A stretch of 64,000 nucleotides of DNA. Origin: a virus. Location of the stretch: IMG/VR virus record IMGVR_UViG_3300050821_005035, positions 1 through 64,000 of that record; one strand, given 5' to 3'. Made by a program: the position numbers and the translations under genes. Below, piece by piece: positions 7,601 through 34,608 of this stretch; position 1 is the first letter of the stretch; each line of letters starts with the position of its first letter. The notes below the pieces were generated by a model. The model did not search any database. It saw nothing but the letters and a program-made list of their open reading frames with translations, and had not been told where the DNA came from.

Positions 7601-7982
7601 AGGACCTGCGAAGGCACCCGGTATGATTAGTCCCGGAAATATTGACCTGACAACTCGGCCAGTGGTGAAGAACGACGACGGAACAACCAGCAGCGAATAT
7701 TCCACCTCAATGGAAGATGAGAACGGACACGAGGTCTTGGTCCCCACGGTGGTAAACGGAAAGTTCTTAACACCAGATGGCAAGAAGCCTCCAGAGGGTC
7801 ACCACGAGAAGCAGGCCAACGGAAGCGACCGATACGTACCCAGCCCGCAGGAGAAGATGATGTTCCAAAAGGCTTGGCAGCATTACAAGCAGACAGGCCA
7901 GCACTTGGGCATATTCGATAACGGCGAACACGCGGACGCGGCAGCGGACGCAATTCACAGCCGACCGCCTGTGAAGAAATAA
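1632..7982 (+). CDS. 2116-aa polyvalent (probably injected) virion protein with M41-like HExxH peptidase, SAM-lyase-like, HhH-glycosylase-like and conserved C-terminal domains
   Basis: RBS AGGA; HIHEWAH...MAGPASHEVF; GTWKDPESGKTYLDIS...NQKAIYNL; WY...LSS...GEKRGPFMQNL...TADMWVSR...LQAVLW; C-terminal GNIDLTTRPVVKNDDG...EVLVPTV...TGQHLGIF. Confidence 0.7.
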   Translation: MADQSTDLSTTNQPAGTTSIDNGIAYDVAGKPLGPANMGAQEAAPPPPPGFKPVTVSGQDAPPPPPGFKPVAEKAEQSAAPAPKAEEDSAAYKSLKNFAGAFNLTLTGSEDADSLKKKVSDYIQSQPPGWTKNFSPQFQEMTKAASGVIGMAKGAYDSQKHEMDTGIAQMQQPGIANKASGAARYAQGLVPFIGPAMGAIEDNFANGDYAKGLGTAFALLVPGAAEHYGPGLIEDLNSRAAKVATTDTKRLIQAAKTQDSAKVLYDGRTREHNVAVQQVKDAETRADAAREAQVAGTGTKAQADEAATNASAARANLGKAESAVTDARDAHANASVRVEQLTRKAQASLGKAAGTKTASPEQVEKSHSDFEQAIPSGKGKSAYTRNDLVTARPILEAAHADTPIDSPEAVVGALESDRVSRDNQVLGAVDKYKNEPIRVEGEDGKTVSLKQKLVDSLKEDEAVRPGFTEAALKELERFNTTDMSVGEADALRKSLNTENRDMLNTSGGWRDVADARETDPKFAARYELQEILRNGVYGTLEDKGVEGARESRKVDASVIRIKNAALRQLNKPGTIMRGTGEAGPVRRAAAWAAEKAGIAGGVAAGAATGIPGAPEVLGVAGGGIGGKISRALNPGDLTRSEQLGRSLKVRHGGEVPTIDVSGSLPSNPPAFGQPPAVEPPVNPRENTELHAQLVAHYDEDMGDSTYSELEQRLLEDIAIKKKHGVPVDPAEKKLNLDIQKSKVEEIQKARGQHEEQLKVTAKAAAEAQKQQEAAIESRKTGTVKTDVNPELDRLGRGDESALVSHSPAMKAHSPASVIPGLPEGVTSEDGHIHEWAHMAIGSVDGLEPVEIRSDIHPKSEKGAGATAVFNGSALRDAAGNIDPEALGNQETQWLTQKMAGPASHEVFKGMTRDEVKASPATRSDFRTSRAIVREVHPDFTASQVEAVVDAAYERARDFLTKPHIADRIRANAAVREDGLSQTLHASHGRVSQFAEDIRNAHNEYTGTDVEPDGGGAGEGVEKAEKPAAEEGKKDAGRSEERGGKGTPKPASEAAAARGVVESEVGKIPVPKETTTGKPEVDEAIRAGGGIPGGIQKGFEYKDKTTGETRQYPDTAYVHEPTSGTSLNFPIDQITSEFVKQRLDEKRAEYAAAEKPKVEESQVSKKEEENYHPDLQAVANKYGTSTDPTGVKRGASFIAPDGKFIHLGATEHPVAIESATNRVGDAEAVGAKMTRSNGPEDSRIGFLKDTGAIRTRFRSSVAGKELVASVPAAGVSEEQISALRQAVGQGLGRDGNFLMEVGEPGGKSATKEFASPRDVEPMLREIGAHPEQKAAPESQIDVHEKTGGSTFTPEGKNLAGSDLHAVAPYPERSQVVDKLTPENLAAYKAKNADLLSDGEHAVGTWKDPESGKTYLDISKTIADRQDAIRAGQDANQKAIYNLKTGETIPTGGTGEAETPFDVAKTRPERVAEIQSRMDRNLRAGDNQYKGLSPEERNIMAWDAQNGMDQVRGAISKAGARFAGGPLADGRWNVQDPETGQYATVSDLKPKSIQDALKAARSGQQMQLPDGSWTTQPDNILEMSQIGKSPKGSSVPLMTNPLEVKGTGEKGRISTLDVAQALNDYSKEKNPALEPGSNAKTMTDRAQKIAEDEAKYQLAQGKTGTEWYTTEMKDHDAALQGMRPELAGGETLDSVPGHPVKLSLFKAAEAVLSSGQKPYGNFKAAVKAWDAYNETGKFPRLNPATGKSWGPRGEAAYGNALDMINKLVADKGEKGAAEWLLTDHPVSELKELNSTTKGKKTDMRPGAIILGEKRGPFMQNLHGIESAFTADMWVSRTWNRWMGTMEFGKDKEGVDEIKSDSPRNGAERDLMKQSFEGTAKKLGLTTSSLQAVLWYYEQALYGAQGIPKESWSFRDAAQRAAKEEAAVPEAEQTGFQFGANKEKGGISNMGSLTANPKFDALGRPFGGGKMNLEESHITQEPTYTVPKGWSKTGPAKAPGMISPGNIDLTTRPVVKNDDGTTSSEYSTSMEDENGHEVLVPTVVNGKFLTPDGKKPPEGHHEKQANGSDRYVPSPQEKMMFQKAWQHYKQTGQHLGIFDNGEHADAAADAIHSRPPVKK
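1758..1845 (+). repeat. Duplicated APPPPPGFKPV peptide
   Basis: Two copies in the N-terminus of the giant protein. Confidence 0.8.
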
Positions 7983-20098: not shown

Positions 20099-20127
20099 AC
20101 CGTATCACACTTTCGGAAATTTGTCAA
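20099..20127 (-). promoter_or_regulatory. Sigma70-type promoter
   Basis: TTGACA-17 bp-TACGGT with TGn; spacer shares CGAAAGTGTGA with the integrase promoter. Confidence 0.6.
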
Positions 20128-21068
20128 CCTATTTCTAGCTCCGCGTCGATCATCATCCGGACCAGTTCGTTGAATCGCACTTTTGGCTCCCAACCCAGTA
20201 CCCGGCGAGCCTTGCTAGAGTCGCCGATCAGAACGTCTACCTCGGTTGGGCGGTACAGCCTCTCGTCGGTCTCAACGTGCTTCCGCCAATCTAGGTTGAG
20301 ATATCCGAATGCCTCGTCAAGAAACTCTTTTACGGAGTGCGCTTCCCCTGTTGCGATCACGTAGTCGTCCGGGAACGGCTGCTGGAGCATCAGGTGCATA
20401 GCCTCCACGTAATCTCCTGCGAATCCCCAATCTCGCATGGCGTCTAGATTGCCGAGGAACAACTTATCTTGCAAGCCTCGGGAGATGCGAACTGCGGCTT
20501 TCGTTATCTTTCTCGTAACGAAAGTTTCGCCGCGCCGGGGTGACTCGTGGTTGAAGAGGATGCCGTTGCACGCGAAGGTACCGTAAGCCTCCCGATGATT
20601 TACTGCAGACCAGTACGCGAACAGCTTGGCGATAGCGTACGGTGAGCGGGGGTGGAACGGGGTGCTCTCGTTAGTGGCCGTCGTATAGACCCCGCCATAC
20701 AGTTCCGAACTGCTGGCTTGATAAAATTTTATGCCCTTTTCTTTAATGGCTTCCAGTATGTTAAGGGCCGCGATCCCTGTGGCCTCTGCGGTGACGACCG
20801 GGATGTCGAAGCTGGTGCGAACCTGGCTTTGCGCGGCCAGGTGATAAACCTCGTCCGGCCCGATCATGTCGATGGTGTTCGTGGTGGAACTGGCGTCGGT
20901 CACGTCGCCGTAATGCAAGTGCAGGTCTCTGAATATGTGGTCAATCCGGCTGGTGTTGATCGAGGAGGAGCGGCGGATAATCCCGTGGACCTCGTAACCT
21001 TTGGACAACAAGAGTTCTGCGAGGTATGAGCCGTCCTGCCCGTTTATGCCCGTTATCAAAGCCTTCAT
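20124..21068 (-). CDS. gmd: GDP-mannose 4,6-dehydratase
   Basis: [19 protein letters not shown]; QASSSELYG; SPYAIAK; [16 protein letters not shown]; RDWG. Confidence 0.95.
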
Positions 21069-21871
21069 GACGCCCCCTCCAAGTTCAGCTTCTCAATCAG
21101 CCATTTCGTCTTCAATGTGTGGTATTCAGGTGAGCGGTGGTTCCAGTTCGACGCGCGCAAGTAGTGAATCCCGATAGGCTTGTCGTTTATGGAAATATTC
21201 TCGTACTCGGACGGATGAAAGTCGGTCGTCGGGTCGTCTGGAACGAAGTACTGCTGGATAAGAGTCGGATTCAGTTCCGGGTGAGATTGCAAGTAGAAGA
21301 AGCTCTGCCCTCCGATGTCTGTGACTATCCCGTTCACGAAGCTGCCCCACCAGTTGATTTGCTCCGGGTTCGGAAGTCTCGACATGTCGGCCAGCACCAG
21401 CGCGTCGTGCATGTGAATCCCGCCCAGGTTGGGGCGAGACTGCGGTATAAAGCACAGCGGCGTCGTTACCAGGTAGTCAGTCAGCTTGATAGGCTGGGTG
21501 AAGAACATGTCCGGGTGGAGGAGGCAGATGGCGCCCTTCTCTTTCATAATGTGGAACTCCCACGTATAAAAGCACCCGTAACAACCAGCGCAGTTGGGAT
21601 TGCTCCAAGAGCCTTGGCGGTTGAATACCGTGCACGACTTCTCTACAGCGTTGCACTTGTCTTCCAAGGACTGGACCCGCTCGACGTCGAATACCGCGAT
21701 TCCAAGCCTCCTGCATGTCTCGTCGATCTTGATACGTTCCGCTGGACGGTCAAACTTGGCGTTGTTTAAGATCGTAAACGTGAAGTCCTCTTGGATATAC
21801 TTCCAGAAAGACTTCAGCTGCAGTTCGATTAGGTCCGACCGGTTGCTCGTGAACGCGAATATGTTAATCAT
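21065..21871 (-). CDS. Putative GT-A glycosyltransferase
   Basis: LQLKSF..YI; LLHPDMFF; DIGG; HYLRASNW; cluster context. Confidence 0.55.
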
Positions 21872-22800
21872 CTGCTCTCCTGTGCTAGCTTGGCGCCGTC
21901 CAATAGGTTGTCGATTTTGTTTAAGTAGGTGTGGTTTTTGGCGACCTCATCCATCAGCGCGTGGAGAGTTTCCGGTGTGGTTCTAGATAGTTGTTCTCTC
22001 GCGTCATAAAACAGCGCGCGTGTATCCCAGTTATAAATCAGCTTTCCACGGAAAATCTCGTTAGCCCAAGGGTTGTTGGTCGCGCACATCTGGCCGTAAG
22101 ACAGCGCCTTGAAGACCCGACACGGCATGTACCCGACCTTGATTTGATACGCTAGGGAGATCGCTGGCGCGATATATGAGGCCTGCACCAGACGTACGTT
22201 CTCTTCCACAGATACGGGGGAGCCGCCGAATCCGCCGACCAGCTTAAAGTTGATTCCACTTTCTTTGCAGGCTGCAGCGAACGGAGCTAGCTCTGGTACC
22301 GAAGTGCCCACGTAGTTGACGTCCCGGCTCCAGTCTCGAAAGACCTTGCTCGGCTTGTTCGCCATAATCTCGTGAGGCAGGAGGTCTGTGGCCCAGCGGA
22401 AGACTACAGCGTCGTAAGAGTCCCAAGGCTGGGGGAAGAAGAACGCGTCCTTGCTCAGTTCCACCGCGTTCGAGGGTAGCTCCATGCTGTTCACGTAAAG
22501 GCCGTAGTTGATAGTTAAAAAGCCCTTCGTGTACTCTTTAGCCCGGGCTTCCATGTTGTGGACCGCGTAAATGCAGTCTGTCCGTAGAGGCATCCCCTTT
22601 ACAGCGTACTCCATGCTGATGAAGAAGGTGTTGGAGAAATCTATCTTAGAGATGTCGTCGTGCGCGTCCAGCCAAAGGACCTGGCGCTCCGGGAATCTGA
22701 ACTTAAGCGCGCGGTAAAAGGCCTCCAGTATGTGACGGAAGGAGTTGTACGCTCCGCTTTTAAATCCCCAAACGCAGAAGTTGCAGTTCTCCAGCTTCAT
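21868..22800 (-). CDS. Putative glycosyltransferase (CgeB-like GT-B C-terminus)
   Basis: GYMPCRVFKALSYG; HTYLNK. Confidence 0.6.
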   Translation of the reverse strand: MKLENCNFCVWGFKSGAYNSFRHILEAFYRALKFRFPERQVLWLDAHDDISKIDFSNTFFISMEYAVKGMPLRTDCIYAVHNMEARAKEYTKGFLTINYGLYVNSMELPSNAVELSKDAFFFPQPWDSYDAVVFRWATDLLPHEIMANKPSKVFRDWSRDVNYVGTSVPELAPFAAACKESGINFKLVGGFGGSPVSVEENVRLVQASYIAPAISLAYQIKVGYMPCRVFKALSYGQMCATNNPWANEIFRGKLIYNWDTRALFYDAREQLSRTTPETLHALMDEVAKNHTYLNKIDNLLDGAKLAQESR

Positions 22801-23978
22801 TTGTATCCCAGGAAATATCCGTGAATAAGCTCGCCTACGTATCGAATGTCTTCAGGAGTTAGGTTCTGATGAATCCCGATCATGAACCCGCTGCGGGCCA
22901 GGTTTTGAGAGACCGGGTACTGCTCCATCATCCGGGGGAAAAGTTTCCTGTATGCGGGACTTTCCAAAAGTGGAAACATGTGGCGGGTTTCCACGCCGTG
23001 CTCTTCCAGATACATGAGCAGCTTCTCCCTGTCTACATACGGCTTGCAGATAATCGGGAACATCATCCACGAGTGAGTCGAGTCGTAAGGGACGTAAGGA
23101 AGTTGAATCTCCGAGATGCCGGAAAGAAGATTTATCAGCTGGCTCGCGTTCGCCTGCCGTTTTGCTGCGTTTTGAGAGAAGTGTCCCAGTTCCGCTAGCG
23201 CCAGCGCGGCCTCTATTTCCGTTGCCCTGTAAGAATATCCGACCCGGTCGAACTTGAATCGGCGCTCGACTATGTTTTGAAGACCAGAACCTGTCAGCCC
23301 GTTGGCCGCGTCGATGCTCGAATACACGCTGTCGCGCCCGTGAGCCATTAAGGAGCGGCACAGTTCGGCCAGCTTACCATCGTTGGTTGTAACCAGACCG
23401 CCTACGCCGCCGACTATGTGGTGGTTGACGTATGTGCTGAAGCATCCCATGTCCCCGAAGCTACCCACTGACTTTCCGTCAACTGTAGACCCAACCGATT
23501 CGCAGCTGTCCTCGATGACCTGCAGGCTGTGACTCTCGGCGATGTACATAATCTCAGGCATCTCTGCGGGTAGTCCGAAGAGGTGAACCGGGATAATTGC
23601 GCGAGTTTTCCGTGTGATCTTCTCTCCTATTTTGCCTGAAGCCATATTGAAGGTTCTAGGATTGACGTCGACAAAGACCGGGACCATGTTGTTTTGAAGG
23701 ACGATGTTGGATGTTGCGATGAAGGTCGTTGCGGGGACCAGAACCTCGTCGCCGTCTTTGTATCCGTGAACTTCTTTCAACGCTGTTAGCGCGACTTGGA
23801 GCGCGCTCGTTCCGCTGTTCATGAAGATGCCATGCTTGCAGCCGTGCATCGCTGCGAACTTCTCCTCGAACTCTCGCGTGTACTTTCCGTATGAAAGCCT
23901 GTTCGTGTCGAGGCAGTCGTTCACATACCTCTTGCCTTGATCTGAGATAGACAGCGTTCCCAGCGTAATTTTTCTCAT
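22797..23978 (-). CDS. DegT/DnrJ-fold PLP enzyme of ColD/RfbH type (NDP-4-keto-6-deoxyhexose 3-dehydratase-like)
   Basis: NSGTSAL; PVHLFG; IEDSCES; FSTYVNHHI with His in place of the PLP Lys. Confidence 0.8.
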   Translation of the reverse strand: MRKITLGTLSISDQGKRYVNDCLDTNRLSYGKYTREFEEKFAAMHGCKHGIFMNSGTSALQVALTALKEVHGYKDGDEVLVPATTFIATSNIVLQNNMVPVFVDVNPRTFNMASGKIGEKITRKTRAIIPVHLFGLPAEMPEIMYIAESHSLQVIEDSCESVGSTVDGKSVGSFGDMGCFSTYVNHHIVGGVGGLVTTNDGKLAELCRSLMAHGRDSVYSSIDAANGLTGSGLQNIVERRFKFDRVGYSYRATEIEAALALAELGHFSQNAAKRQANASQLINLLSGISEIQLPYVPYDSTHSWMMFPIICKPYVDREKLLMYLEEHGVETRHMFPLLESPAYRKLFPRMMEQYPVSQNLARSGFMIGIHQNLTPEDIRYVGELIHGYFLGYK

Positions 23979-24544
23979 CGTCCCCCCGTGAACATGCTGT
24001 TCGGTCCTAACCACGATTCTCTGGCGGTTCTGGCGAACTTGTCACGGTCAGATAGAATCGGGTTATCCGTCAAAGGCCAGTCGATGCCGATGTCTGGGTC
24101 ATTCCAAAGGACCGCCCGGTCTTCGCCGACGTACTCGTCGCAGTTATATAGAACGATTGTGTTGGGTTCCAAGGCGCAGTATCCGCGCGCAAATCCTGCT
24201 GGCGCCCAGACTTGATAATTATTACGCTCGTGAGCGATGACGTTGTGGTACCTCAAAAATGTGGGAGAATTCATGCGGATATCGACGGCCACCAGGTAAG
24301 CCGCGCCGTTGATGACCTGCATCAGCTTCCCCATCGGCGGGTCTAGCTGGTAGTGAAGGCCCCGGATGACTCCGCGCTCCGAGCGGGAGACCATCTGTCG
24401 AAGGACGCGGGACGGGAAACAAAACAGTGGGTCGTCTTGTAGCCGGGTCACAGTTAACGAGCCTCGGTTATCTGAGAAGGTTGTTGGTTGAATGACCTTG
24501 ACTTCTCCGTTGAAGTGCTCGTCTACAATTTCAAAGAGTCTCAT
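23975..24544 (-). CDS. rmlC: dTDP-4-dehydrorhamnose 3,5-epimerase family protein
   Basis: DNRG; RGLHYQ; VAVDIR..SPTF; WNDPDIGIDWP; LSDRD. Confidence 0.9.
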   Translation of the reverse strand: MRLFEIVDEHFNGEVKVIQPTTFSDNRGSLTVTRLQDDPLFCFPSRVLRQMVSRSERGVIRGLHYQLDPPMGKLMQVINGAAYLVAVDIRMNSPTFLRYHNVIAHERNNYQVWAPAGFARGYCALEPNTIVLYNCDEYVGEDRAVLWNDPDIGIDWPLTDNPILSDRDKFARTARESWLGPNSMFTGGR

Positions 24545-25530
24545 AGTCCACCTTTATGCCACTCGATTGTGTTTCTTAATCCCTCTTCCAGTCCCACAAA
24601 ATGTGCTTTCTTAAACTCGTTCATAACCCGCCAGACGTCCATCACGACGTTGCCTGACGCGCCTGCCATCTGGTTTGAGCCGGTAAAGAGTCGGGAGCCG
24701 GATAGCCGGGCGATCTCGCAGGCGACGTTCTCGATGGTGTAGCTGTTTGGAGAGCCGACATTGTACACGGCCTTCGTGCCGTGGAGGAGAATATTCCACA
24801 TGATCTCGACCGCGTCTCTAATGTAGCAGAAGGTACGTAGCTCGTCCCCGGAAAATTTCATCGCAACCACCCCGTCTTTCAAAGACTGGTCGATGAACGT
24901 GCTGACCGCTCTGGAATCGCCTCGTCGAGCGCCAGGCCCGTATACGAGAGACAGCCTTGCAGACTGCGCGTCGACGACTCCGGTTTCACGGAACGCGTTT
25001 ACGACAGCCTCTCCGCAGCGTTTGCCTTCGATGTACCCGGCCCTGGGGTGATACGGGTTAGTGGTTCCGATCTGATACTCGTCCGCGTTACTCAGCCCGC
25101 TGTAAACCTCGGAGGAGCTAGCGAAGAGAAACTTTCCACCAGGCTTCAAATATTGTAGCAGCTGGCGGGTCCACTCCACGTTGATGCGAATGGTCTCCGC
25201 TGGATTCTTTGTGAACCGGGAAGGCTGCGCGTACCCGGCGAGATGAATCACCGCGTCTAGGTCGGTGAAGACATTCTGTTCTGATAACAGCTGGATATCA
25301 TCCAGGCAGGCGATCTCCTTGGTGTGGTCCTCTGGCTCCGAGTGGCAGTAGCCGTACGCCTTAATCTTCATACCGTCGTTCTTCAAGAGACCCAGGGTCG
25401 CTAGGAAGTGCGTCCCGATCTGGCCTGTGGCGCCGGTGACCAGGACAGACTTTCCCTCCAGCCAGCTGAAGTCCACGGCCTCGATGACCTTGTGCGCGTC
25501 CGAGTAGATGATGCCAAGCCTATTTTTCAC
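24541..25530 (-). CDS. NAD-dependent epimerase/dehydratase (extended SDR)
   Basis: VTGATGQIG; ASSSEVY; YIEGK; RTFCYIRD; start uncertain. Confidence 0.85.
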   Translation of the reverse strand: MKNRLGIIYSDAHKVIEAVDFSWLEGKSVLVTGATGQIGTHFLATLGLLKNDGMKIKAYGYCHSEPEDHTKEIACLDDIQLLSEQNVFTDLDAVIHLAGYAQPSRFTKNPAETIRINVEWTRQLLQYLKPGGKFLFASSSEVYSGLSNADEYQIGTTNPYHPRAGYIEGKRCGEAVVNAFRETGVVDAQSARLSLVYGPGARRGDSRAVSTFIDQSLKDGVVAMKFSGDELRTFCYIRDAVEIMWNILLHGTKAVYNVGSPNSYTIENVACEIARLSGSRLFTGSNQMAGASGNVVMDVWRVMNEFKKAHFVGLEEGLRNTIEWHKGGL

Positions 25531-26059
25531 TATAGTAGTCTCCGAATTCCACGCATATAGTAGCACGTCCGTCCGTTCTTGTCAAGGCCTTTTCGTAGGC
25601 CGGGAAGATGTCCTCTGGCTCGTCTAGCCGGATGACCTCGACCGTCGTCAGCATTTGTCTCAGCGGTTCTGTGAAGTCGCCGACATGCTGCGCTTGAGGA
25701 TGCAAAGGCCTTTCACTCCCTATTCCCACTCGAACAATTACATTAGGGCAATAACCATTCTGGCTCATTTGAGAAAGTTTGTCAAGGTGTAAAATCAGCT
25801 GATTCATGGCGAGCAACAAAAAGTTGTACCGGGGATATATTGTCACCGGGATGAAGCCAGCGAGGGCCAGACCGATACTCGCTCCTAGCTGTAATTCTTC
25901 CGCAACGGGAAATTCTGTGAGCTTTTCTTTAGGAACATTGACGAGCGTGCCGCTCATACCGGTTCCAGGATAAGCGACCGCTTGCCCTAAGAAAATCGTG
26001 CGAGGGTCGGCTCCCAGATAATCCATAGCTCTGGTTAGTTCTTGTTGGTATTTTCCCAT
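25520..26059 (-). CDS. TPP-dependent enzyme beta subunit (pyrimidine-binding domain only)
   Basis: FLGQ; EFPVAE..QLG..IGLALAG; NQL; QH; TGATG overlap with alpha gene. Confidence 0.8.
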   Translation of the reverse strand: MGKYQQELTRAMDYLGADPRTIFLGQAVAYPGTGMSGTLVNVPKEKLTEFPVAEELQLGASIGLALAGFIPVTIYPRYNFLLLAMNQLILHLDKLSQMSQNGYCPNVIVRVGIGSERPLHPQAQHVGDFTEPLRQMLTTVEVIRLDEPEDIFPAYEKALTRTDGRATICVEFGDYYSEK

Positions 26060-26688
26060 CAGAAGGTCACTCTTTTCCCTGCCCCAGCGTGGGGCCACTT
26101 CTCGGCCTTGTATCTAAAATGCGTAACGTGATCTGAGAACTTACTTTTGTGTTCTGCGTCTGTTGTAAACTCGTCGCCGAATTCGTTCTTCAATCCCCAC
26201 GCCAGTCGAGTATCCGTGCAGACAGAAAGGTTGTTGTCCTCGACGTGGAAGTATACTGGTAGATCAAAATTTTCTACGTACTTAATGCTTTCGTAAGCTA
26301 TCCCTGTTTCGGCTGTCATGTCACCTAGAAAAATATGGACGCGCTCATTACCACATCTGCGCTGGATAGCCATGCCAAGGCCTACACCGATGGGTAAAAC
26401 CCCACCAATGATTGCACTAGATAAAATGCGGTACTCAGGAAAGCTGAGAGCAATTGAGTATCCAGCCATAATCTTGGTTTTCAACTCTGCGGGAGGCACT
26501 CCTTTTAAAAGGCAGGGGTAATGGCTTCTCCACGAACAAAGCACCCAATCTTGGGCGCGTATGCCTTTGAAGATTTCGATCAGTTCTTTCTCCCCGCCAG
26601 AGTAAAGATGAGTAGGACTTCTTATCAGACCAGCGTTAAACTCAGCGGCGATGTCATCTTCGAATGCTATTAGTTCTTCCGGTGTCAT
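26059..26688 (-). CDS. TPP-dependent enzyme alpha subunit (short E1-alpha-like)
   Basis: HLYSGGE; WRSHY; GDMTAETG...EDNN TPP-binding motif. Confidence 0.85.
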   Translation of the reverse strand: MTPEELIAFEDDIAAEFNAGLIRSPTHLYSGGEKELIEIFKGIRAQDWVLCSWRSHYPCLLKGVPPAELKTKIMAGYSIALSFPEYRILSSAIIGGVLPIGVGLGMAIQRRCGNERVHIFLGDMTAETGIAYESIKYVENFDLPVYFHVEDNNLSVCTDTRLAWGLKNEFGDEFTTDAEHKSKFSDHVTHFRYKAEKWPHAGAGKRVTF

Positions 26689-26689
26689 G

Positions 26690-27487
26690 TTATCTCCAGA
26701 GGTCCGGGTGCAGCAGGTGAATCAACCGCACCAGTCCGCCGTGTACTTTCGTGGCTTGTGTTATCATAGAAACTTTTTTGACTCGGTAGTGGAACAAAGG
26801 CTCGTTTACCACCCCGACGGTCCAACCGCGCTTCAAGATGTCGAGCCACATATTCCAGTCCTCGTATCCGAGAACTTTCGTGCTGCCCGCGACGTCGACG
26901 AAGATAGTCTCGTATCCGGGGGTTTGTTCGAAGGCCGTGCGGCGAATCAAAGAGCATACAGGAAGGTCATTGCTGACCATCTCGCTCGCGAGAGACAGTC
27001 CCTTCGGCGGGATGCGGTTGTGCAACAGTCCCTCGTACTGCATGTCCGTCGACACGATGCCGATGCCTTGGTTAACCATCAAGGGAACTGTGCGCTCCAA
27101 GTAGTTGGCCTCGATCCAGTCGTCGGAATCGAGGGGGAGGATAAACTCTCCGTCTCCAGCTTTTATGCCCTCGTTCCTGGACGTTGAGAGGCCTCGGTTC
27201 TCCCGGTCAATAATTTTCAGATTCCCGTTGAAGTTCCAGCACCCGGGGACTGGTTCCATCATCTCAGCTTCCGCGTAACGCTTGACCATCAACTCTCTCA
27301 TCTCTCCGTTCCAACGGTCTACTATCTCTCGCACGACCACCATCGAGTGGTCCGTGGAGCCGTCGTTGACTAGGGTTACATCGAAGTCCGGGTACGTCTG
27401 GGCCAACGCAGAATTCAAGCACTGCTCGATAAATTCCTCTTGGTTGAAAAGAGGAATCACGATGTTGACTTTGCCGACCTTAATCAT
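26690..27487 (-). CDS. Glycosyltransferase family 2
   Basis: IVIPLFNQ; VNDGSTD; NRGLSTSRNEG; LDSDD; GYEDW. Confidence 0.9.
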   Translation of the reverse strand: MIKVGKVNIVIPLFNQEEFIEQCLNSALAQTYPDFDVTLVNDGSTDHSMVVVREIVDRWNGEMRELMVKRYAEAEMMEPVPGCWNFNGNLKIIDRENRGLSTSRNEGIKAGDGEFILPLDSDDWIEANYLERTVPLMVNQGIGIVSTDMQYEGLLHNRIPPKGLSLASEMVSNDLPVCSLIRRTAFEQTPGYETIFVDVAGSTKVLGYEDWNMWLDILKRGWTVGVVNEPLFHYRVKKVSMITQATKVHGGLVRLIHLLHPDLWR

Positions 27488-28197
27488 AGCCTGGTCCACC
27501 TTTCGGGTACGATATCCGAGTAATCTACATCTGGATTTGAGAACCACTTCTTCGGCGCCACAACCAACTTCTGGGGGCCGAGCCACGCTCCCCACCACCC
27601 ATAGCTGCTGTTGGCGATCACTTGGTACTCGCAGCTGGAGATAAGCGTTAAGTCCTCGTACTTGTTTCCGCCCTCGATGACCTTGAAGTCGGAGGGAAAG
27701 TTTTCCTTACACCATTGGCGGTCATCGGAGAATACCATCACAGGAACAAGTGCTCCCACTTCGCGCCGGATATGGGCGACCCCTTCTCGGTAATAGTCGA
27801 GAGTCGGCAGGCCGTGAAAGTGCTCCAGTCCGACGTAGTCTTGGCGACGGACGTGAACTGCGATAAAGGGAAGCAGAGGCCTGTTATTGAGAGGGAAGGC
27901 CAGACGAACCATCTGAGTGAAATACTTTTCTGACTGCCAGTAACCAATCATCGTGCAGTCTTCTGTTGGTTCCAGGTAGCTGGGGTTGTACCTCATGCCG
28001 TCTTCATAGACTTCTCTGCCACTCGATTTACCGTCGGCCTTTATTCCGAAGTATCCGAGAGAGTACTCGCGATGGGTGCCCTCGATCAAATAGGACCTGT
28101 CCAGCTGGACCTCATAGCCTCTGTCTTGCAGCGTCATAGCGAAGGCACACTGAAACATCTGGTTGCATAACCCGCCAAGTAGTCGTACCGTAATCAT
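27484..28197 (-). CDS. Alpha-1,2-fucosyl/colitosyl-transferase, GT11
   Basis: GGLCNQMFQ; GYWQSEKYF; HVRRQDY; FSDD; ANSSYGWWGAWL. Confidence 0.9.
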   Translation of the reverse strand: MITVRLLGGLCNQMFQCAFAMTLQDRGYEVQLDRSYLIEGTHREYSLGYFGIKADGKSSGREVYEDGMRYNPSYLEPTEDCTMIGYWQSEKYFTQMVRLAFPLNNRPLLPFIAVHVRRQDYVGLEHFHGLPTLDYYREGVAHIRREVGALVPVMVFSDDRQWCKENFPSDFKVIEGGNKYEDLTLISSCEYQVIANSSYGWWGAWLGPQKLVVAPKKWFSNPDVDYSDIVPERWTRL

Positions 28198-28889
28198 CGC
28201 GCGCCCTTATTCAGCGCCAGAATCTTTGGCGTGACGTTCAGTCCCGCTGCCTTCCACTTGTCTGTGTAATACGCGGACGCGCTTTCCGGGTAGCAGTAAG
28301 AGGGATCGAGAACCGTACAAGGCGGGTGCTCGTGAAGGTAGCGATTCAAGTGCGATTCGTCATGCCATACTGCGAGCACTCCGCAAGATTCATCCACACT
28401 GATGTGATAAGCTAGATCGGTAGCCATTCTCAAAAATGTTGAGGTTGCGCCGCCGTTGAATCCCCCACAAAAGTATTTATTTGCAGAACCTGGAGCAATA
28501 GAGGCCACTGAGTGTATTCTCCGTTCCGGAGTCCCGCACGAGCCAACGTATCCTGGGTGCAGGGTAGCGGTTATGCCGTTGGAGAAGACTTCCTCCCCGA
28601 CCGGAGCGACAAATCGCATATCAGAGTCTATCCAAAAAACTTGGTCGTACCCTTTCAATAGCCACTCCTGATTCAGAATTGTGTGATACCTGTATAGCGT
28701 TTCCTTGGGGAAACCGAGAGCTTTCTTGGTTAGTACAAATTTCGCATCGAAGGTGCTGGCCGCTTCCAGAGTATCCGTCCACACAATCGCATCGTGTTCG
28801 ACAAAAAACTCTTGAGCAGATTCCAAAAGTGGTGGTACGAATGCATGGTACTTTTCTCCTGTGGCGATCACGAGCAGAGCGGTCTTCAC
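28194..28889 (-). CDS. Glycosyltransferase family 6 (ABO-type)
   Basis: IATGEKY; DSD; TLHPG; CGGFNGG; WHDESHLNRY. Confidence 0.9.
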   Translation of the reverse strand: MKTALLVIATGEKYHAFVPPLLESAQEFFVEHDAIVWTDTLEAASTFDAKFVLTKKALGFPKETLYRYHTILNQEWLLKGYDQVFWIDSDMRFVAPVGEEVFSNGITATLHPGYVGSCGTPERRIHSVASIAPGSANKYFCGGFNGGATSTFLRMATDLAYHISVDESCGVLAVWHDESHLNRYLHEHPPCTVLDPSYCYPESASAYYTDKWKAAGLNVTPKILALNKGAR

Positions 28890-29575
28890 GAATTCACCGT
28901 CCGGTACACGAGGTCCGCTGTTTCCATCCAGCGGTACTCAAGCTTATACCCCGACTTGTACTGCGACGACGGGAAGTGCGACGAGTAAGAGTTAGCAGGC
29001 AGGTCGAGCGCGATCATGTCGCCTCTTGCTAGTTCCTTGCCGAGCACCTGGCCCACCCATAGGTCTTCGGCCCACCCGTGAGGGAACGTGTCCGCGATCA
29101 CGCACATCGCGTCTCTAGAAAGGAAGTAGCCAAAACCGCCGCTGGCCCAGGGATAGCACTCCGGGATGTGAGTAACAATGCCACGGCGATCAATCGCGTC
29201 GTAAGGGAAGGTCTCGCCTATCGGCTTGCTGATCTTGCCCGTGTAGTCGTAACGCTGGTAGCCGCAGGTCAGCAGCTGGTTCACCTTCACGTACGTGTCG
29301 GTGTCCGCTAAAAACAGATGATCTACGTTCTTCCCAAAGGCCCACTGACATATCGCTCGTGTCTTTGATGGCAGAGAATTGTAGTCATCTTCTGTATCGA
29401 CTACGACCTCATCGCTTTTATAAACACGACTAGTCCTTCCATCTCTTTCTGCTCCCACGAAAAATTTTAGATGCGCTTTGCCTCTCAGTTCCTGCCCCCA
29501 CGTTTTTCTAATCACGTCGTGGTACCCGTTATCTAAGTCGGCCTTGCAGCTTTTAATTGCTATAATTAGGCTCAT
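28886..29575 (-). CDS. GT31-like beta-1,3-glycosyltransferase
   Basis: IRKTWG; DDYNSLPSKT; ADTDTYV; ASGGFGYFLS; EDLWVG. Confidence 0.85.
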   Translation of the reverse strand: MSLIIAIKSCKADLDNGYHDVIRKTWGQELRGKAHLKFFVGAERDGRTSRVYKSDEVVVDTEDDYNSLPSKTRAICQWAFGKNVDHLFLADTDTYVKVNQLLTCGYQRYDYTGKISKPIGETFPYDAIDRRGIVTHIPECYPWASGGFGYFLSRDAMCVIADTFPHGWAEDLWVGQVLGKELARGDMIALDLPANSYSSHFPSSQYKSGYKLEYRWMETADLVYRTVNS

Positions 29576-30072
29576 TTTATCTCCGGTTTGAAAGACGTTC
29601 CACAATTTGGGCAGCATACTTTACGTACTCGATTACCCGCTTGTTCTTTTGATGTTGCCCATCGAACGTTTCCTGGTTCGTAATTACCATCATTATCAAT
29701 TCTATCGACAGAGTGTTTTAAACTAGGTCGAGGTCCAATATCCTGAATAAACTCGCGGAAATCTGTGAATAAAAATTTTATTCCACGGCCTCCGTAGTTC
29801 ATCCAAGCCTTGTGCTTCGGATTCGTACACAGCAGCTTTGCAGACGCAAAAATTCTGTGCTCTCTTGTTCCGTAAACTCCGTGCGTTATTTTGTAGCAGG
29901 TATGGCACGCTTTTGTATCCCCGCTATTTAAAGCCGCCGTTCTAACTTTGGCAGTACGTCCACATATACAAAAACACAGCCACACGGTCGCTCTTTGCTG
30001 CCTTCCTGCAGGCCATGCAACCGTTAGTTTTCCAAAAATCATTCCTGATAAATCTTCGAAATCCGACCTCAT
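29572..30072 (-). CDS. Free-standing HNH homing endonuclease
   Basis: DLSGMIFGKLTV..WLCFCICG; YGGRGI; SVDRIDNDGNYEPGNVRWAT..Q..N; AT-rich. Confidence 0.9.
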   Translation of the reverse strand: MRSDFEDLSGMIFGKLTVAWPAGRQQRATVWLCFCICGRTAKVRTAALNSGDTKACHTCYKITHGVYGTREHRIFASAKLLCTNPKHKAWMNYGGRGIKFLFTDFREFIQDIGPRPSLKHSVDRIDNDGNYEPGNVRWATSKEQAGNRVRKVCCPNCGTSFKPEIK

Positions 30073-30836
30073 AACTTAACCTCTTCGTCGAAGCCAAAAT
30101 ATTTCTTAATTCCCCGCTTCTTCATCATCAGCGCGTGCCCGGTCGTGAGGGCACGTTGTCGGAACGCTTTGTATCTGGGGTCCTGCTTCGAGGCATCATA
30201 TTCCATCTGATTTATATTTGCTTCCTGAAGGAACGCGACTACGATTTTTGCGGCCTTCAAATCAAGAAAGAAATCCACGTGTTCCCCGCCAATTTTAACT
30301 ATACTTTCATCCCACGGTACGGCTCGAAGAATACTGGTGCGCGCTAGAAAATAATTGGCCGCGATGTCGACCTTCCAAAGTTTGAACGGCAGAAGACGAA
30401 AAGGCAAATCCCCTAATGGGCGGCGATGTTCTTTAATATACTCGCCTGGTACGTATTCAAGGGTTCCTTCATAACATCTATCATTGACTCTGCCAGCGAC
30501 TACGTCGATTTCGTATCCCATGTTTACTTCTGATGAGCTTAATGCCTTTTCCATCTTGATAATCCCTTCTCGCGCTTCGTCTGTTGAGAAGTCAAAATCA
30601 TCTGAGCCAATTAGCGTGTACCGCGTTTGAACTTGCGCGACGCCCGCGTTCCGCTTTGCGGTGAGACCTGAGTCGTAGGGCAGATAAATCTCGTTCGCCG
30701 TTTGAGGAATCACTCCGTCGTCCGATACGACTATGACATCGCACTCCGGCAGGTTCTCCCGGATGCCAGCGAGGCAGTCCCTTAGGTAGCCTCGACGGTG
30801 GAATGTCGGGATGACGATTGTTATGTCACCTAGCAT
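30069..30836 (-). CDS. Glycosyltransferase family 2
   Basis: IVIPTFHR; VSDDG; GLTAKRNAG; SDDFD; EHVDFF. Confidence 0.85.
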   Translation of the reverse strand: MLGDITIVIPTFHRRGYLRDCLAGIRENLPECDVIVVSDDGVIPQTANEIYLPYDSGLTAKRNAGVAQVQTRYTLIGSDDFDFSTDEAREGIIKMEKALSSSEVNMGYEIDVVAGRVNDRCYEGTLEYVPGEYIKEHRRPLGDLPFRLLPFKLWKVDIAANYFLARTSILRAVPWDESIVKIGGEHVDFFLDLKAAKIVVAFLQEANINQMEYDASKQDPRYKAFRQRALTTGHALMMKKRGIKKYFGFDEEVKL

Positions 30837-32920: not shown

Positions 32921-34120
32921 TCATATTGCCTCGTTGTCTTCTTCCGCGAAGATGTCAACGTCTTCGTCGGACTTGGTGAAGTTCAGTTCCTTGTATCCTT
33001 GCTCTTTCAAGACGAACGCGCGGAAGTACGGGTCGCTGCGGTCGTCGTGCGGGTATCGTACGCTAAACGTGTCCGGGTAGCTCTGTGACTTCCACGCGTT
33101 CACGATGCTGATAATCTGCCTCTGCGCTACCTTGCCCGCGTCTTCTGCCGACTCTACGGTAACGAATCCGGCGTTGAATTGCAAGCGTTGTTTTGTTACA
33201 GACTCCTCTTGCGCAAAGGTTCCGTTCTCTTCCAGCCACTTCGCGCGTCGTTCCTTCGCGACATTGGTCTGCTCCGTCTTCCCGTTCTTCTGCCCTTGGA
33301 CGCGCTCCATCTCCTCGACCATGAAGTCGTTCGGGAGAAGCCAGATGCCCTCGTCTTCCACCAGCGCGATCACGGCCTCTGCCCCGGCCTTCATGAACCC
33401 GACGTCTTCGAGCAGCGTGACCGAGTAGCCCTTCTGGATGCTCAGCCCCTTTTTAACGAACCAAGCCATCGCGACATCGCGTATGCCGCTGACCCACGAA
33501 TACAGTCGCAGCTGTATATCGTACGCAGCGATGCCGTACTGCTCCGGGAAGTCTGCCCCAGCTGTCTTGATGTCAACGATGATTGGCCGGAAAGCGCCGT
33601 ACTCAGGCTTCCAATCCAGCTTAGGTAACATAGGATGCTGGGGTTCAACGAAGGCGACGATGTCGAGCCTTCCTTCGAATTCGATCTCACCATAATTGGC
33701 GTCTCCTGGAAATACTTCCTTGCCGTATATTCTTTGGAACACAGCTTGCCCGCCGAGCGGAATAGGAAGACTCGGCTGGCGAATAGCGTACAGCTTCAGC
33801 CAATCCGTTCCGATGCGGAGGCACTGCGCCCAGTCTTTCTCGACTCGGGTGAACTGCAGTTCCTTGTTATCTCGGAACGCGTTCCACTGGGTCTCGAAGT
33901 GCTTAAGCGTCGAGGCCAGGTCGCCTCGGTTCTCGTGGTAATACTGGAACGACGACTCGAAGGCCTTTCCAAGTTCGAACCGTGCGAGCTTGTTCTTCTC
34001 ACGCCAGCCTAGAACCTTCTGGAGGTAATATTTAAAATTTGAGTGGTCCCAGGTAGACCCGGCGCTGTAGCTATGTTTGCGGTGCGGTCTTCCGGTCGGT
34101 CCTATGTAAAGGAATGCCAT
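32921..34120 (-). CDS. PD-(D/E)XK (RecB/AddB-like) exonuclease
   Basis: HSYS; EGRLD; IVDIKT; QLRLY; GGAGGA RBS before MAFLY. Confidence 0.8.
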   Translation of the reverse strand: MAFLYIGPTGRPHRKHSYSAGSTWDHSNFKYYLQKVLGWREKNKLARFELGKAFESSFQYYHENRGDLASTLKHFETQWNAFRDNKELQFTRVEKDWAQCLRIGTDWLKLYAIRQPSLPIPLGGQAVFQRIYGKEVFPGDANYGEIEFEGRLDIVAFVEPQHPMLPKLDWKPEYGAFRPIIVDIKTAGADFPEQYGIAAYDIQLRLYSWVSGIRDVAMAWFVKKGLSIQKGYSVTLLEDVGFMKAGAEAVIALVEDEGIWLLPNDFMVEEMERVQGQKNGKTEQTNVAKERRAKWLEENGTFAQEESVTKQRLQFNAGFVTVESAEDAGKVAQRQIISIVNAWKSQSYPDTFSVRYPHDDRSDPYFRAFVLKEQGYKELNFTKSDEDVDIFAEEDNEAI

Positions 34121-34122
34121 TC

Positions 34123-34608
34123 TTAGTCCTCCCACTTTTTTATGTACTTGATTATGGCGTATAGAATTCGTGTATCTTCTTGGGAGTGTCCAACTATGAA
34201 ATTACAGTTTACACACAGCAAATCTCTGCAAGTGCCTTCTCTCCCATGCTTGTGATCTACGTTAGGGGGTCCTGCCACTTTTCCGAATACTCTCTGGCAA
34301 GCGGCGCATCTGTTTCTTTGTTTACGCTTTTTCTCGTTAAAGGTGGCGACTGTTAAACCATATTTCTTTTTCAAACGATGTCGACGATATCTTGCCTTTG
34401 CTCTTTTTGGATTTAGCTTTGCCCACCGTCTTCTAAGAAACGCTCCGCGTTCTTGGTTTAAACTCTCCCATACTTTGACTCCGTCACAATCGAGACAGTA
34501 TTTTCTATGAGCATTAGCGTAACGAGTCCCTATTTTCTTAGTTCTCACTAAGAACCGCTTTTTGCACGTTTTGTTTTGACAAATTTTACTGCTCATTGGT
34601 TTCACCAA
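34123..34608 (-). CDS. Endonuclease VII-family homing endonuclease
   Basis: YGLT...Q.NRCAAC..VDHKH...RDLLCVNCN..G; AT-rich. Confidence 0.85.
   Translation of the reverse strand: MVKPMSSKICQNKTCKKRFLVRTKKIGTRYANAHRKYCLDCDGVKVWESLNQERGAFLRRRWAKLNPKRAKARYRRHRLKKKYGLTVATFNEKKRKQRNRCAACQRVFGKVAGPPNVDHKHGREGTCRDLLCVNCNFIVGHSQEDTRILYAIIKYIKKWED

Follow-up and report, generated by a model that had tools for sequence, protein, structure and literature searches.

The subject of this study is a sugar biosynthesis operon in a soil virus. We analyzed a window of 64,000 nucleotides (nt), which corresponds to positions 1 to 64,000 of the IMG/VR record IMGVR_UViG_3300050821_005035; its source is a single 75,133-bp viral contig obtained from soil metagenomes. 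The operon located at positions 20124 to 26688 on the minus strand probably turns host GDP-mannose into a GDP-linked, C4-branched 3,6-dideoxyhexose, namely, a yersiniose-like branched colitose; this proposal was made from sequence features, with comparative genomics as support. A sequence-only reading of the same interval had listed five elements, i.e., gmd, a pyridoxal phosphate (PLP) enzyme, an RmlC-like epimerase, a short-chain dehydrogenase/reductase (SDR), and the two subunits of a thiamine diphosphate (ThDP) enzyme. All five were found there on the minus strand, and all pathway genes are intact open reading frames (ORFs). The genes that it named were correct, and its inventory was incomplete, as two predicted glycosyltransferase genes (21065-21871 and 21868-22800) had been overlooked. 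The colitose- or yersiniose-like GDP-sugar that it had suggested gained comparative support from (i) an invariant His residue in the PLP enzyme, (ii) the colitose gene trio in sister phages, and (iii) the linkage of the ThDP enzyme to this pathway in phages and bacteria. Consecutive island genes are linked by stop/start overlaps of 1 to 11 bases, and the GC content of the island is that of the remaining phage. The gene set recurs in the same order in many related viral contigs, which places the observation far beyond chance.

The gene gmd (20124..21068) codes for a GDP-mannose 4,6-dehydratase of 314 amino acids (aa). Its assignment was borne out by a score of 479.4 bits against the equivalog model TIGR01472 (cut-off, 415 bits), with residues 2 to 312 covering model positions 2 to 340 of 342, and by a full-length match to PF16363 (429.7 bits). 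The PLP enzyme (22797..23978; 393 aa from M13) matched PF01041 with 329 bits over profile positions 6 to 358 of 360 and thus has the scaffold of a DegT/fold-type I aminotransferase. Its longest ORF runs from 24014; the likely true start is M13 at 23978, as in the database record of the same protein. The motif FSTYVNHHIVGGVGG (FSTYVNHH) is present, and in the HMMER alignment its first His stands at the Schiff-base Lys of Caulobacter GDP-perosamine synthase, in agreement with the earlier claim that NHHI replaces this Lys. We inspected the 120 best database homologues (≥60% identity), and in all 115 with a readable motif the His was kept as FSTYV[A/N]H, the residue preceding it being Ala or Asn across the clade. 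The substitution is therefore not a one-off lesion. Both known classes of sugar 3-dehydratases, ColD and the CDP-sugar enzyme E1, carry the same Lys-to-His change, and ColD, aligned via a bacterial ColD-like enzyme, has SHH at the equivalent position. From the conserved His, the substitution shared with known 3-dehydratases, and the fitting gene partners, we infer that the protein acts with pyridoxamine phosphate (PMP) or PLP as a GDP-4-keto-6-deoxy-D-mannose 3-dehydratase. Of the features of a ColD-type enzyme, the DegT scaffold and the His in place of the Lys are present, and the gene context fits a role between Gmd and a ColC/Fcl-type enzyme; orthology to ColD and the Ser-His dyad were not borne out. 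A different reading starts from the facts that the best solved relative is GDP-perosamine synthase and that the automatic names given to the relatives in the source database are perosamine synthetase: the protein could be an inactive or differently acting relative of that enzyme, with a 6-deoxy or 4-amino sugar as the end product of the pathway. We consider this highly improbable, since an internal aldimine is impossible without the Lys, the His is invariant in the 115 readable relatives and is shared with ColD and E1, and the partners of the enzyme, gmd and an Fcl-like enzyme, are just those of ColD.

This partnership became apparent from loci with orthologues of the PLP enzyme, of which 21 were viral and 80 metagenomic; they were collapsed to 79 distinct lineages. 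In 28 lineages the orthologue occurs with an Fcl-like SDR (~310 aa) and no ThDP enzyme. The Fcl-like proteins scored ~280 bits against the GDP-L-fucose synthase model NF047922, which is below the cut-off, as expected for the paralogue ColC. The gene gmd was present in 29 of the 34 lineages with full flanks. The PLP enzyme, gmd, and the Fcl/ColC-like enzyme are the canonical GDP-colitose trio, and this trio is the commonest variant in this phage group. The orthologues found beside gmd and the Fcl-like SDR are 59 to 73% identical to the window enzyme, which in the PLP tree is sister to that of a canonical colitose-type locus (L045; 73% identity). The variants interleave on this tree, so that the enzyme presumably does the same job in all contexts. 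Two further features of these loci were noted. In one canonical colitose-type phage locus, a NUMOD3-motif protein, probably a homing endonuclease, is encoded between the Fcl-like and PLP genes (L031:8336-9004). In four colitose-type loci (L087, L088, L091, and L095; e.g., L088:4176-5276), the Fcl-like gene is preceded upstream by another DegT paralogue, which is only distantly related (28% identity). This paralogue could be a true aminotransferase for a second GDP-sugar; a regular expression gave no readable motif in it in the four loci.

The ThDP enzyme is encoded by two genes, one for an alpha-like subunit of 209 aa (26059..26688) and one for a beta-like subunit of 179 aa (25520..26059). The longest ORF of the beta gene starts at 26098; the probable start codon is the ATG at 26059, which overlaps the stop codon of the alpha gene as TGATG. 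The alpha subunit matched PF00676 (E1_dh) with 44 bits and TIGR03182 with 62 bits, far below the cut-off of the latter. It aligns only with residues 59 to 209 of human E1-alpha, and its GDM-x26-EDNN segment corresponds to the GDG...ENN metal/diphosphate motif of that protein. The metal/ThDP motif, G(D/E)M...DN(G/N), was kept in 121 of the 121 alpha family members examined, and the ThDP family comprises 6,392 database matches. The beta subunit matched PF02779 (Transket_pyr; 30 bits) and aligns with residues 8 to 121 of E1-beta, i.e., the N-terminal PYR domain. Its PVAEE segment aligns with PLSEA of Thermus E1-beta, and the cofactor-activating Glu is kept; the Pfam scan gave no Transketolase_C match in this subunit. 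Full-length E1 enzymes have an alpha subunit of ~320 to 365 aa and a beta subunit with a C-terminal transketolase_C/E2-binding domain, whereas the C-terminal half of alpha and the C-terminal domain of beta are missing here. In true 2-oxo-acid dehydrogenases these parts serve lipoyl and E2 interactions. What is left is a bare core of a PP and a PYR domain, which would suit decarboxylation and carboligation rather than a dehydrogenase complex. We also considered the pair as a homologue of YerE, an enzyme of the acetohydroxyacid synthase (AHAS) type that uses ThDP and FAD. This was ruled out, since the Pfam search found TPP_enzyme_N, TPP_enzyme_M, and TPP_enzyme_C in none of the operon proteins and matched E1_dh and Transket_pyr instead, as in a truncated E1-type enzyme lacking the single-chain TPP_enzyme architecture. 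The alpha/beta pair noted earlier is thus present with intact ThDP motifs, but its supposed family relation to YerE was not retained.

Evidence for a role of this enzyme in the sugar pathway came from its distribution. ThDP pairs were found in 23 lineages, and the window-type extended SDR accompanies them in every one of these 23 informative cases. Of the lineages with ≥4 kb of upstream sequence, 20 lack the pair as well as the SDR (Fisher 1e-12, uncorrected for relatedness). The ThDP pair is usually translationally coupled to the SDR. It is of the E1 type in 17 lineages and of a non-orthologous split transketolase type in the other 6 (L029:5942-7503; L055, L073, L093, L117, and L122), which consists of a Transketolase_N protein (236 aa, 90 bits) and a Transket_pyr protein (284 aa, 73 bits). 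The split transketolase occupies the slot just upstream of the SDR gene in four of these six lineages; the PLP gene lies in between in L117 and L122. In a tree of 25 SDR sequences, those with E1-type and those with transketolase-type partners interleave, corresponding to at least 3 swaps. The slot takes two unrelated ThDP enzymes yet always needs one, which argues for ThDP chemistry on a pathway intermediate. To our knowledge, only the YerE reaction explains why a ThDP enzyme would accompany a sugar 3-dehydratase. In this reaction, a 4-keto-3,6-dideoxy sugar nucleotide receives an acyl anion equivalent at its C4 carbonyl (PMC9306805). Three ThDP enzyme families are known or have been proposed to place carbon branches on keto-sugar nucleotides (PMC9306805, PMC12247030, PMC4753412): (i) decarboxylases such as YerE, (ii) the alpha-KADH2 enzymes of actinomycetes (AviB1/B2, AlmDI/DII, Pau11/12, and KbDH), which are E1-type alpha/beta enzymes acting on pyruvate and dTDP-sugars (PMC12247030, PMC4753412), and (iii) transketolases, proposed for branching in miharamycin and amipurimycin biosynthesis (PMC12247030, PMC4753412). 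The split transketolase represents a non-orthologous displacement of the E1-type pair, and the branch that it adds may be hydroxyacetyl in place of acetyl.

Homologues of the ThDP pair with 55 to 61% identity were retrieved from 14 bacterial loci, mostly in metagenome-assembled genomes (MAGs) of Verrucomicrobiota, with one Nitrospira and one gammaproteobacterium. In 12 of the 14 MAG loci the pair adjoins a DegT enzyme with the sequence FSFYYAHH, the best solved relative of which is ColD. The cluster conserved in the Verrucomicrobiota and Nitrospira MAGs (L001-L014, e.g., L008:5304-15390) also codes for a GHMP kinase, a nucleotidyltransferase-NUDIX fusion, SDRs, a B12-binding radical SAM protein, and a small GT2 glycosyltransferase, and it probably makes an unknown branched, perhaps methylated, envelope sugar. 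The same clusters hold unannotated proteins of ~575 and 650 aa. In the gammaproteobacterial locus L012, the neighbours of the ThDP pair are a class IV aminotransferase, a haem-oxygenase-like iron enzyme, and two PhyH dioxygenases, a context that looks like small-molecule rather than sugar biosynthesis. In the viral contig L021 (7374-13611), the genes flanking the pair code for a SIS-domain isomerase, an HldE-like kinase/adenylyltransferase, and a radical SAM-SPASM enzyme, which suggests ThDP chemistry on a heptose nucleotide. Fused ThDP genes were seen in Synechococcus phage S-SM2 (L023, 149421-150629) and Prochlorococcus phage P-TIM68 (L024, 167767-168912), the sugar islands of which contain phosphoheptose isomerase, carbohydrate kinase, nucleotidyltransferases, and zinc alcohol dehydrogenase.

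The nature of the branch may also be different. The ThDP pair might use another 2-oxo acid donor, such as hydroxypyruvate or the 2-oxoglutarate arising from PMP regeneration, or it might act on the 3-hydroxylated GDP-4-keto-6-deoxymannose, and the product would then not be of the yersiniose type. YerE-like enzymes take donors from C3 to C8 (PMC9306805), the unit transferred by the transketolase-type pairs of sister phages should be glycolaldehyde and not acetaldehyde (PMC12247030), and the alpha subunit is too divergent from pyruvate dehydrogenase E1 for its donor specificity to be read. Conversely, the characterized alpha-KADH2 branching enzymes appear to be restricted to pyruvate and C2 branches (PMC12247030), and the tight linkage of the ThDP enzyme to the 3-dehydratase in both phages and bacteria points to a 3-deoxy ketone as acceptor. 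We therefore judge a branch of another kind to be distinctly unlikely.

The remaining two proteins are the RmlC-like cupin (23975..24544; 189 aa) and the extended SDR (24541..25530; 329 aa from GTG), both of which had been correctly recognized from the sequence. The RmlC-like protein matched PF00908, the dTDP_sugar_isom cupin family, with 143 bits and scored 151.7 bits against TIGR01221, just under the cut-off of 155.75 bits of this rmlC equivalog. By inspection, it contains the His of RGLHYQ, the Lys of GK, the Tyr of LY, and the Asp of SDRD. Its best solved relatives are RmlC enzymes, GDP-heptose 3- and 3,5-epimerases match as well, and we predict that it is a C5 (3,5) epimerase of the GDP-4-keto-3,6-dideoxy intermediate. 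It is present in 16 of the 23 ThDP lineages; an Fcl-like enzyme replaces it in 5, and neither was seen in 2. In the closest relative (L015/L028), the neighbouring genes are 70 to 95% identical to those of the window and the RmlC-like gene is just 49% identical, as if another allele of the epimerase had been exchanged into an operon that is syntenic in all other respects. The SDR matched PF01370 (135.6 bits) and PF16363 (91 bits) and carries the motifs TGATGQIG, SSSEVY, and YIEGK. Its longest ORF runs from 25566, and the probable start is the GTG at 25530, with GGAG 9 nt before it. The predicted role of this protein is that of an NAD(P)H-dependent ketoreductase of the C4 side chain, similar to YerF. 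A tree of eight SDR sequences had separated a ThDP-linked clade I from a ThDP-less clade II, which was taken as proof of a side-chain reductase. This was overturned by the 25-sequence tree, in which the ThDP-less pair falls inside the family; the clade argument was consequently dropped, and the co-occurrence statistic alone was kept.

A number of observations weigh against the proposal of a branched colitose. (i) For the PLP enzyme, ColD (149.8 bits) is a poorer match than either perosamine synthase (194.6 bits) or the CDP-sugar dehydrase E1 (181.5 bits), and the residue before the His is Asn where ColD has Ser. Judged by these sequence scores, with perosamine synthase in front, it is not a ColD orthologue. 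(ii) The matches of the ThDP subunits to E1 models are weak (44 and 30 bits), and the characterized sugar-branching alpha-KADH2 enzymes are much longer proteins. (iii) ThDP homologues occur in the non-sugar cluster of the gammaproteobacterial MAG (L012:5468-11189) and, without a 3-dehydratase, in heptose clusters (L021 and the cyanophages S-SM2 and P-TIM68), so that the family is not confined to 3-deoxy sugars. (iv) The nucleotide specificity of the RmlC-like enzyme and the SDR as GDP-sugar enzymes is a prediction. (v) Two lineages (L044 and L048) keep gmd, RmlC, the PLP enzyme, and an SDR of the same family and have no ThDP enzyme within 9 kb; in the 25-sequence tree, their SDRs form one long-branch clade inside the SDR family. 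As the SDR of these lineages must act on C4 without a ThDP enzyme, the SDR may be a plain C4 reductase everywhere, and the ThDP pair would then need another role.

The last point leads to the alternative of an unbranched sugar. Here, Gmd and the 3-dehydratase would be followed by the RmlC-like protein and the SDR as C4 ketoreductase, i.e., a split ColC, to yield either GDP-L-colitose or the corresponding C4 epimer, and another function would fall to the ThDP pair, for example, keto-acid decarboxylation or the supply of an acyl group or aldehyde for another decoration. In L044 and L048 the SDR must indeed finish the sugar, presumably at C4, and these SDRs nest within the same family; in addition, the colitose trio prevails in this phage group, and GT11 enzymes are known as a family to handle fucose or colitose. 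We nevertheless consider this alternative unlikely for the following reasons. The SDR and the ThDP pair occur together in all 23 informative lineages, and two unrelated ThDP types were placed in the same slot, usually in translational coupling with the SDR. In five lineages (L065, L071, L083, L089, and L093), an Fcl-like enzyme is found besides the ThDP enzyme and the SDR, and it would be redundant if both reductases just acted on C4, unless the two branches make different sugars. Finally, the bacterial ThDP pairs adjoin ColD-like enzymes, and we know of no other plausible sugar-linked role for a ThDP enzyme.

The proposed route to the branched colitose would comprise five steps. (i) Gmd would convert GDP-mannose into GDP-4-keto-6-deoxy-D-mannose, a step that is well supported. 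(ii) The His-type DegT enzyme would use PMP to remove the C3 hydroxyl as ColD does, which the His and the gene partners suggest, yielding GDP-4-keto-3,6-dideoxy-D-mannose. (iii) The RmlC-like cupin is expected to invert C5 at the 4-keto stage. (iv) The E1-type ThDP pair would decarboxylate pyruvate and transfer the hydroxyethyl carbanion onto the C4 carbonyl, giving a 4-C-acetyl tertiary alcohol; gene linkage points to this reaction, which would be that of YerE and the actinomycete alpha-KADH2 enzymes. (v) The extended SDR may reduce the ketone of the side chain to a 1-hydroxyethyl group in a YerF-like manner, this being the least certain step. The predicted product is GDP-4-C-(1-hydroxyethyl)-3,6-dideoxy-L-hexose, a branched colitose. 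Since yersiniose is abequose with a branch at 4-C and colitose is the mirror image of abequose, the product would be the L-series counterpart of yersiniose.

The pathway genes are embedded in a larger set of glycosyltransferase genes. The two overlooked ORFs, 21065..21871 (268 aa) and 21868..22800 (310 aa), had no Pfam or NCBIfam match, and a few homologues of the second product carry PF13524. The AlphaFold model of the first product had a pLDDT of 96.7, and its top Foldseek matches were all of the GT-A fold (XXYLT1, ABO GTA/GTB, the UGGT catalytic domain, and BoGT6a); the Asp of its DSD (DxD-like) motif is invariant in the family alignment. For the second product (pLDDT of 96.9), all Foldseek matches were of the GT-B fold (SenB, TreT, OtsA, AviGT4, and FUT9). 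The models thus indicate that the two proteins are glycosyltransferases with GT-A and GT-B folds, respectively, and their consideration as sugar-tailoring enzymes was abandoned on account of these folds. A further block of glycosyltransferase genes, identified by Pfam matches, is located upstream in the same operon (26690..30836). In the 5' to 3' direction of the minus strand, the island starts with GT2 (30069-30836), followed by an ORF of 166 aa (29572-30072), GT31-like (28886-29617), GT6 (28194-28889), GT11 (27484-28197), and a second GT2 (26690-27598). The order then continues with ThDP-alpha, ThDP-beta, the SDR, the RmlC-like protein, the DegT-family enzyme, the two ORFs without a family match, gmd, an unknown ORF, and a GH108 lysozyme. 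With five glycosyltransferases recognized by Pfam and two by their fold, the island holds at least seven.

A GT11 homologue lies within the pathway locus in 29 of the 34 lineages with full flanks. GT11 is the family of alpha-1,2-fucosyl- and colitosyltransferases, and judging from its sequence family and position, the GT11 enzyme is the likely transferase for the branched sugar. No island protein has a predicted membrane segment, and Pfam and membrane-segment scans revealed no flippase, polymerase, or initiating phosphotransferase in the island. All island proteins thus being soluble and these functions missing, a cytoplasmic glycan acceptor is indicated. The adjacent GT11 enzyme would probably pass the branched colitose onto a glycan built on this acceptor by the at least seven soluble phage glycosyltransferases. 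As one option, we considered DNA glycosylation by a route with a cytosine methyltransferase and a TET-type enzyme, followed by glycosylation of 5-hydroxymethylcytosine (bioRxiv 10.1101/2023.12.21.572611). Neither a C5-cytosine methyltransferase nor a thymidylate-synthase homologue was found in the 75-kb record, which is ~74% complete; the Tet_JBP search of this incomplete record gave no match, but its control was silent too. DNA as the glycan acceptor is unsupported. A more far-reaching version of our proposal, which we put forward tentatively and at somewhat less than even chances, is that soil phages make an undescribed "L-yersiniose" by means of a minimal ThDP carboligase that is swapped freely with a split transketolase and that GT11 caps with it a blood-group-like cytoplasmic glycan on a virion protein or DNA.

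As to the phage itself, the contig codes for an A1/DNA-transfer protein that is ~45% identical to those of siphophages, e.g., Pseudanabaena phage Pan1 and Dinoroseobacter phage R5C, as well as for an integrase, a split DNA polymerase, a primase, and a helicase. A megablast search of GenBank phages with the 6.5-kb stretch gave no match, and the best GenBank phage match to the PLP enzyme has an identity of only 33%. Promoter and terminator scans gave matches that were no more frequent than in shuffled sequence. Two other regions of the window were noted. An ORF of 2,116 aa on the plus strand (1632-7982) has almost no PHROG match and presumably codes for a very large virion or tail protein. Positions 32921 to 34608, immediately upstream of the glycan island, code for a PD-(D/E)XK nuclease-like protein (404 aa) and an endonuclease VII homologue (161 aa); the gene of the former is kept at the same position in L015, L016, L045, L046, and L048.

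Full-text searches turned up no paper that links phages with ThDP-dependent sugar branching or with a GDP-sugar 3-dehydratase. The principle of the branching chemistry has been established for the yersiniose and alpha-KADH2 systems. What is new is its setting, which is both GDP-linked and viral, the minimal E1-type enzyme of just two domains, the replacement of this enzyme by a split transketolase and vice versa, and the modular family of colitose islands in soil phages. If the proposal is true, (i) ThDP-dependent sugar branching extends to GDP-sugars and to viruses; (ii) the pair, with its 209 + 179 aa, is a heteromeric carboligase of very small size that takes ketones as acceptors, and such enzymes are sought for chiral tertiary alcohols; (iii) there is a large uncharted family of soil-phage glycan islands, in which modules (colitose, epimerase plus reductase, and two kinds of ThDP branching enzymes) are shuffled around one conserved 3-dehydratase; and (iv) the ThDP pair beside ColD-like enzymes in the Verrucomicrobiota and Nitrospira MAGs predicts unknown branched envelope sugars in abundant uncultured bacteria.

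Four known systems can be compared with that of the phage. The GDP-L-colitose pathway (Gmd, ColD, and ColC) of E. coli O55/O111, Yersinia pseudotuberculosis, and Vibrio cholerae O139 likewise starts from GDP-mannose via Gmd and employs a DegT-fold enzyme with His for the Schiff-base Lys, with a GT11-family transferase adjacent; the full trio with an Fcl/ColC-like enzyme is also found in sister phages. In contrast to this pathway, the phage has a PLP enzyme that is no ColD orthologue (149.8 versus 194.6 bits for perosamine synthase) and carries N-H instead of S-H in its motif, an RmlC-like epimerase and an unrelated extended SDR in place of ColC, and an additional ThDP enzyme. The CDP-yersiniose A pathway (E1/E3, YerE, and YerF) of Yersinia pseudotuberculosis, with the relatives ErwE and MMAR_2332, shares the logic of His-type PMP-dependent 3-deoxygenation, ThDP-dependent branching at C4, and side-chain reduction (PMC9306805). 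It is CDP-linked and of the D-series, whereas the phage pathway would be GDP-linked and includes a predicted C5 epimerase; moreover, YerE is a single-chain AHAS-type ThDP/FAD protein of ~570 aa, and the phage enzyme is a two-subunit E1-type core of 209 and 179 aa. The alpha-KADH2 enzymes (AviB1/AviB2, AlmDI/DII, Pau11/Pau12, and KbDH-alpha/beta) resemble the phage pair in being heteromeric ThDP enzymes of the E1 type, and they put a C2 branch derived from pyruvate on a keto-sugar nucleotide (PMC12247030, PMC4753412). Compared by description, they consist of full-length E1 subunits and serve dTDP-sugars in secondary metabolism, whereas the phage pair consists of the PP and PYR domains only and is part of a viral GDP-sugar operon. 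The "transketolase central region-containing protein" of the cyanophages S-SM2 and P-TIM68 is 36 to 40% identical to the phage alpha subunit and is also phage encoded within a nucleotide-sugar/glycosyltransferase island, but it is a fused alpha-beta protein of ~380 to 400 aa, and its gene adjoins those of the heptose pathway and of a zinc alcohol dehydrogenase, a 3-dehydratase being absent.

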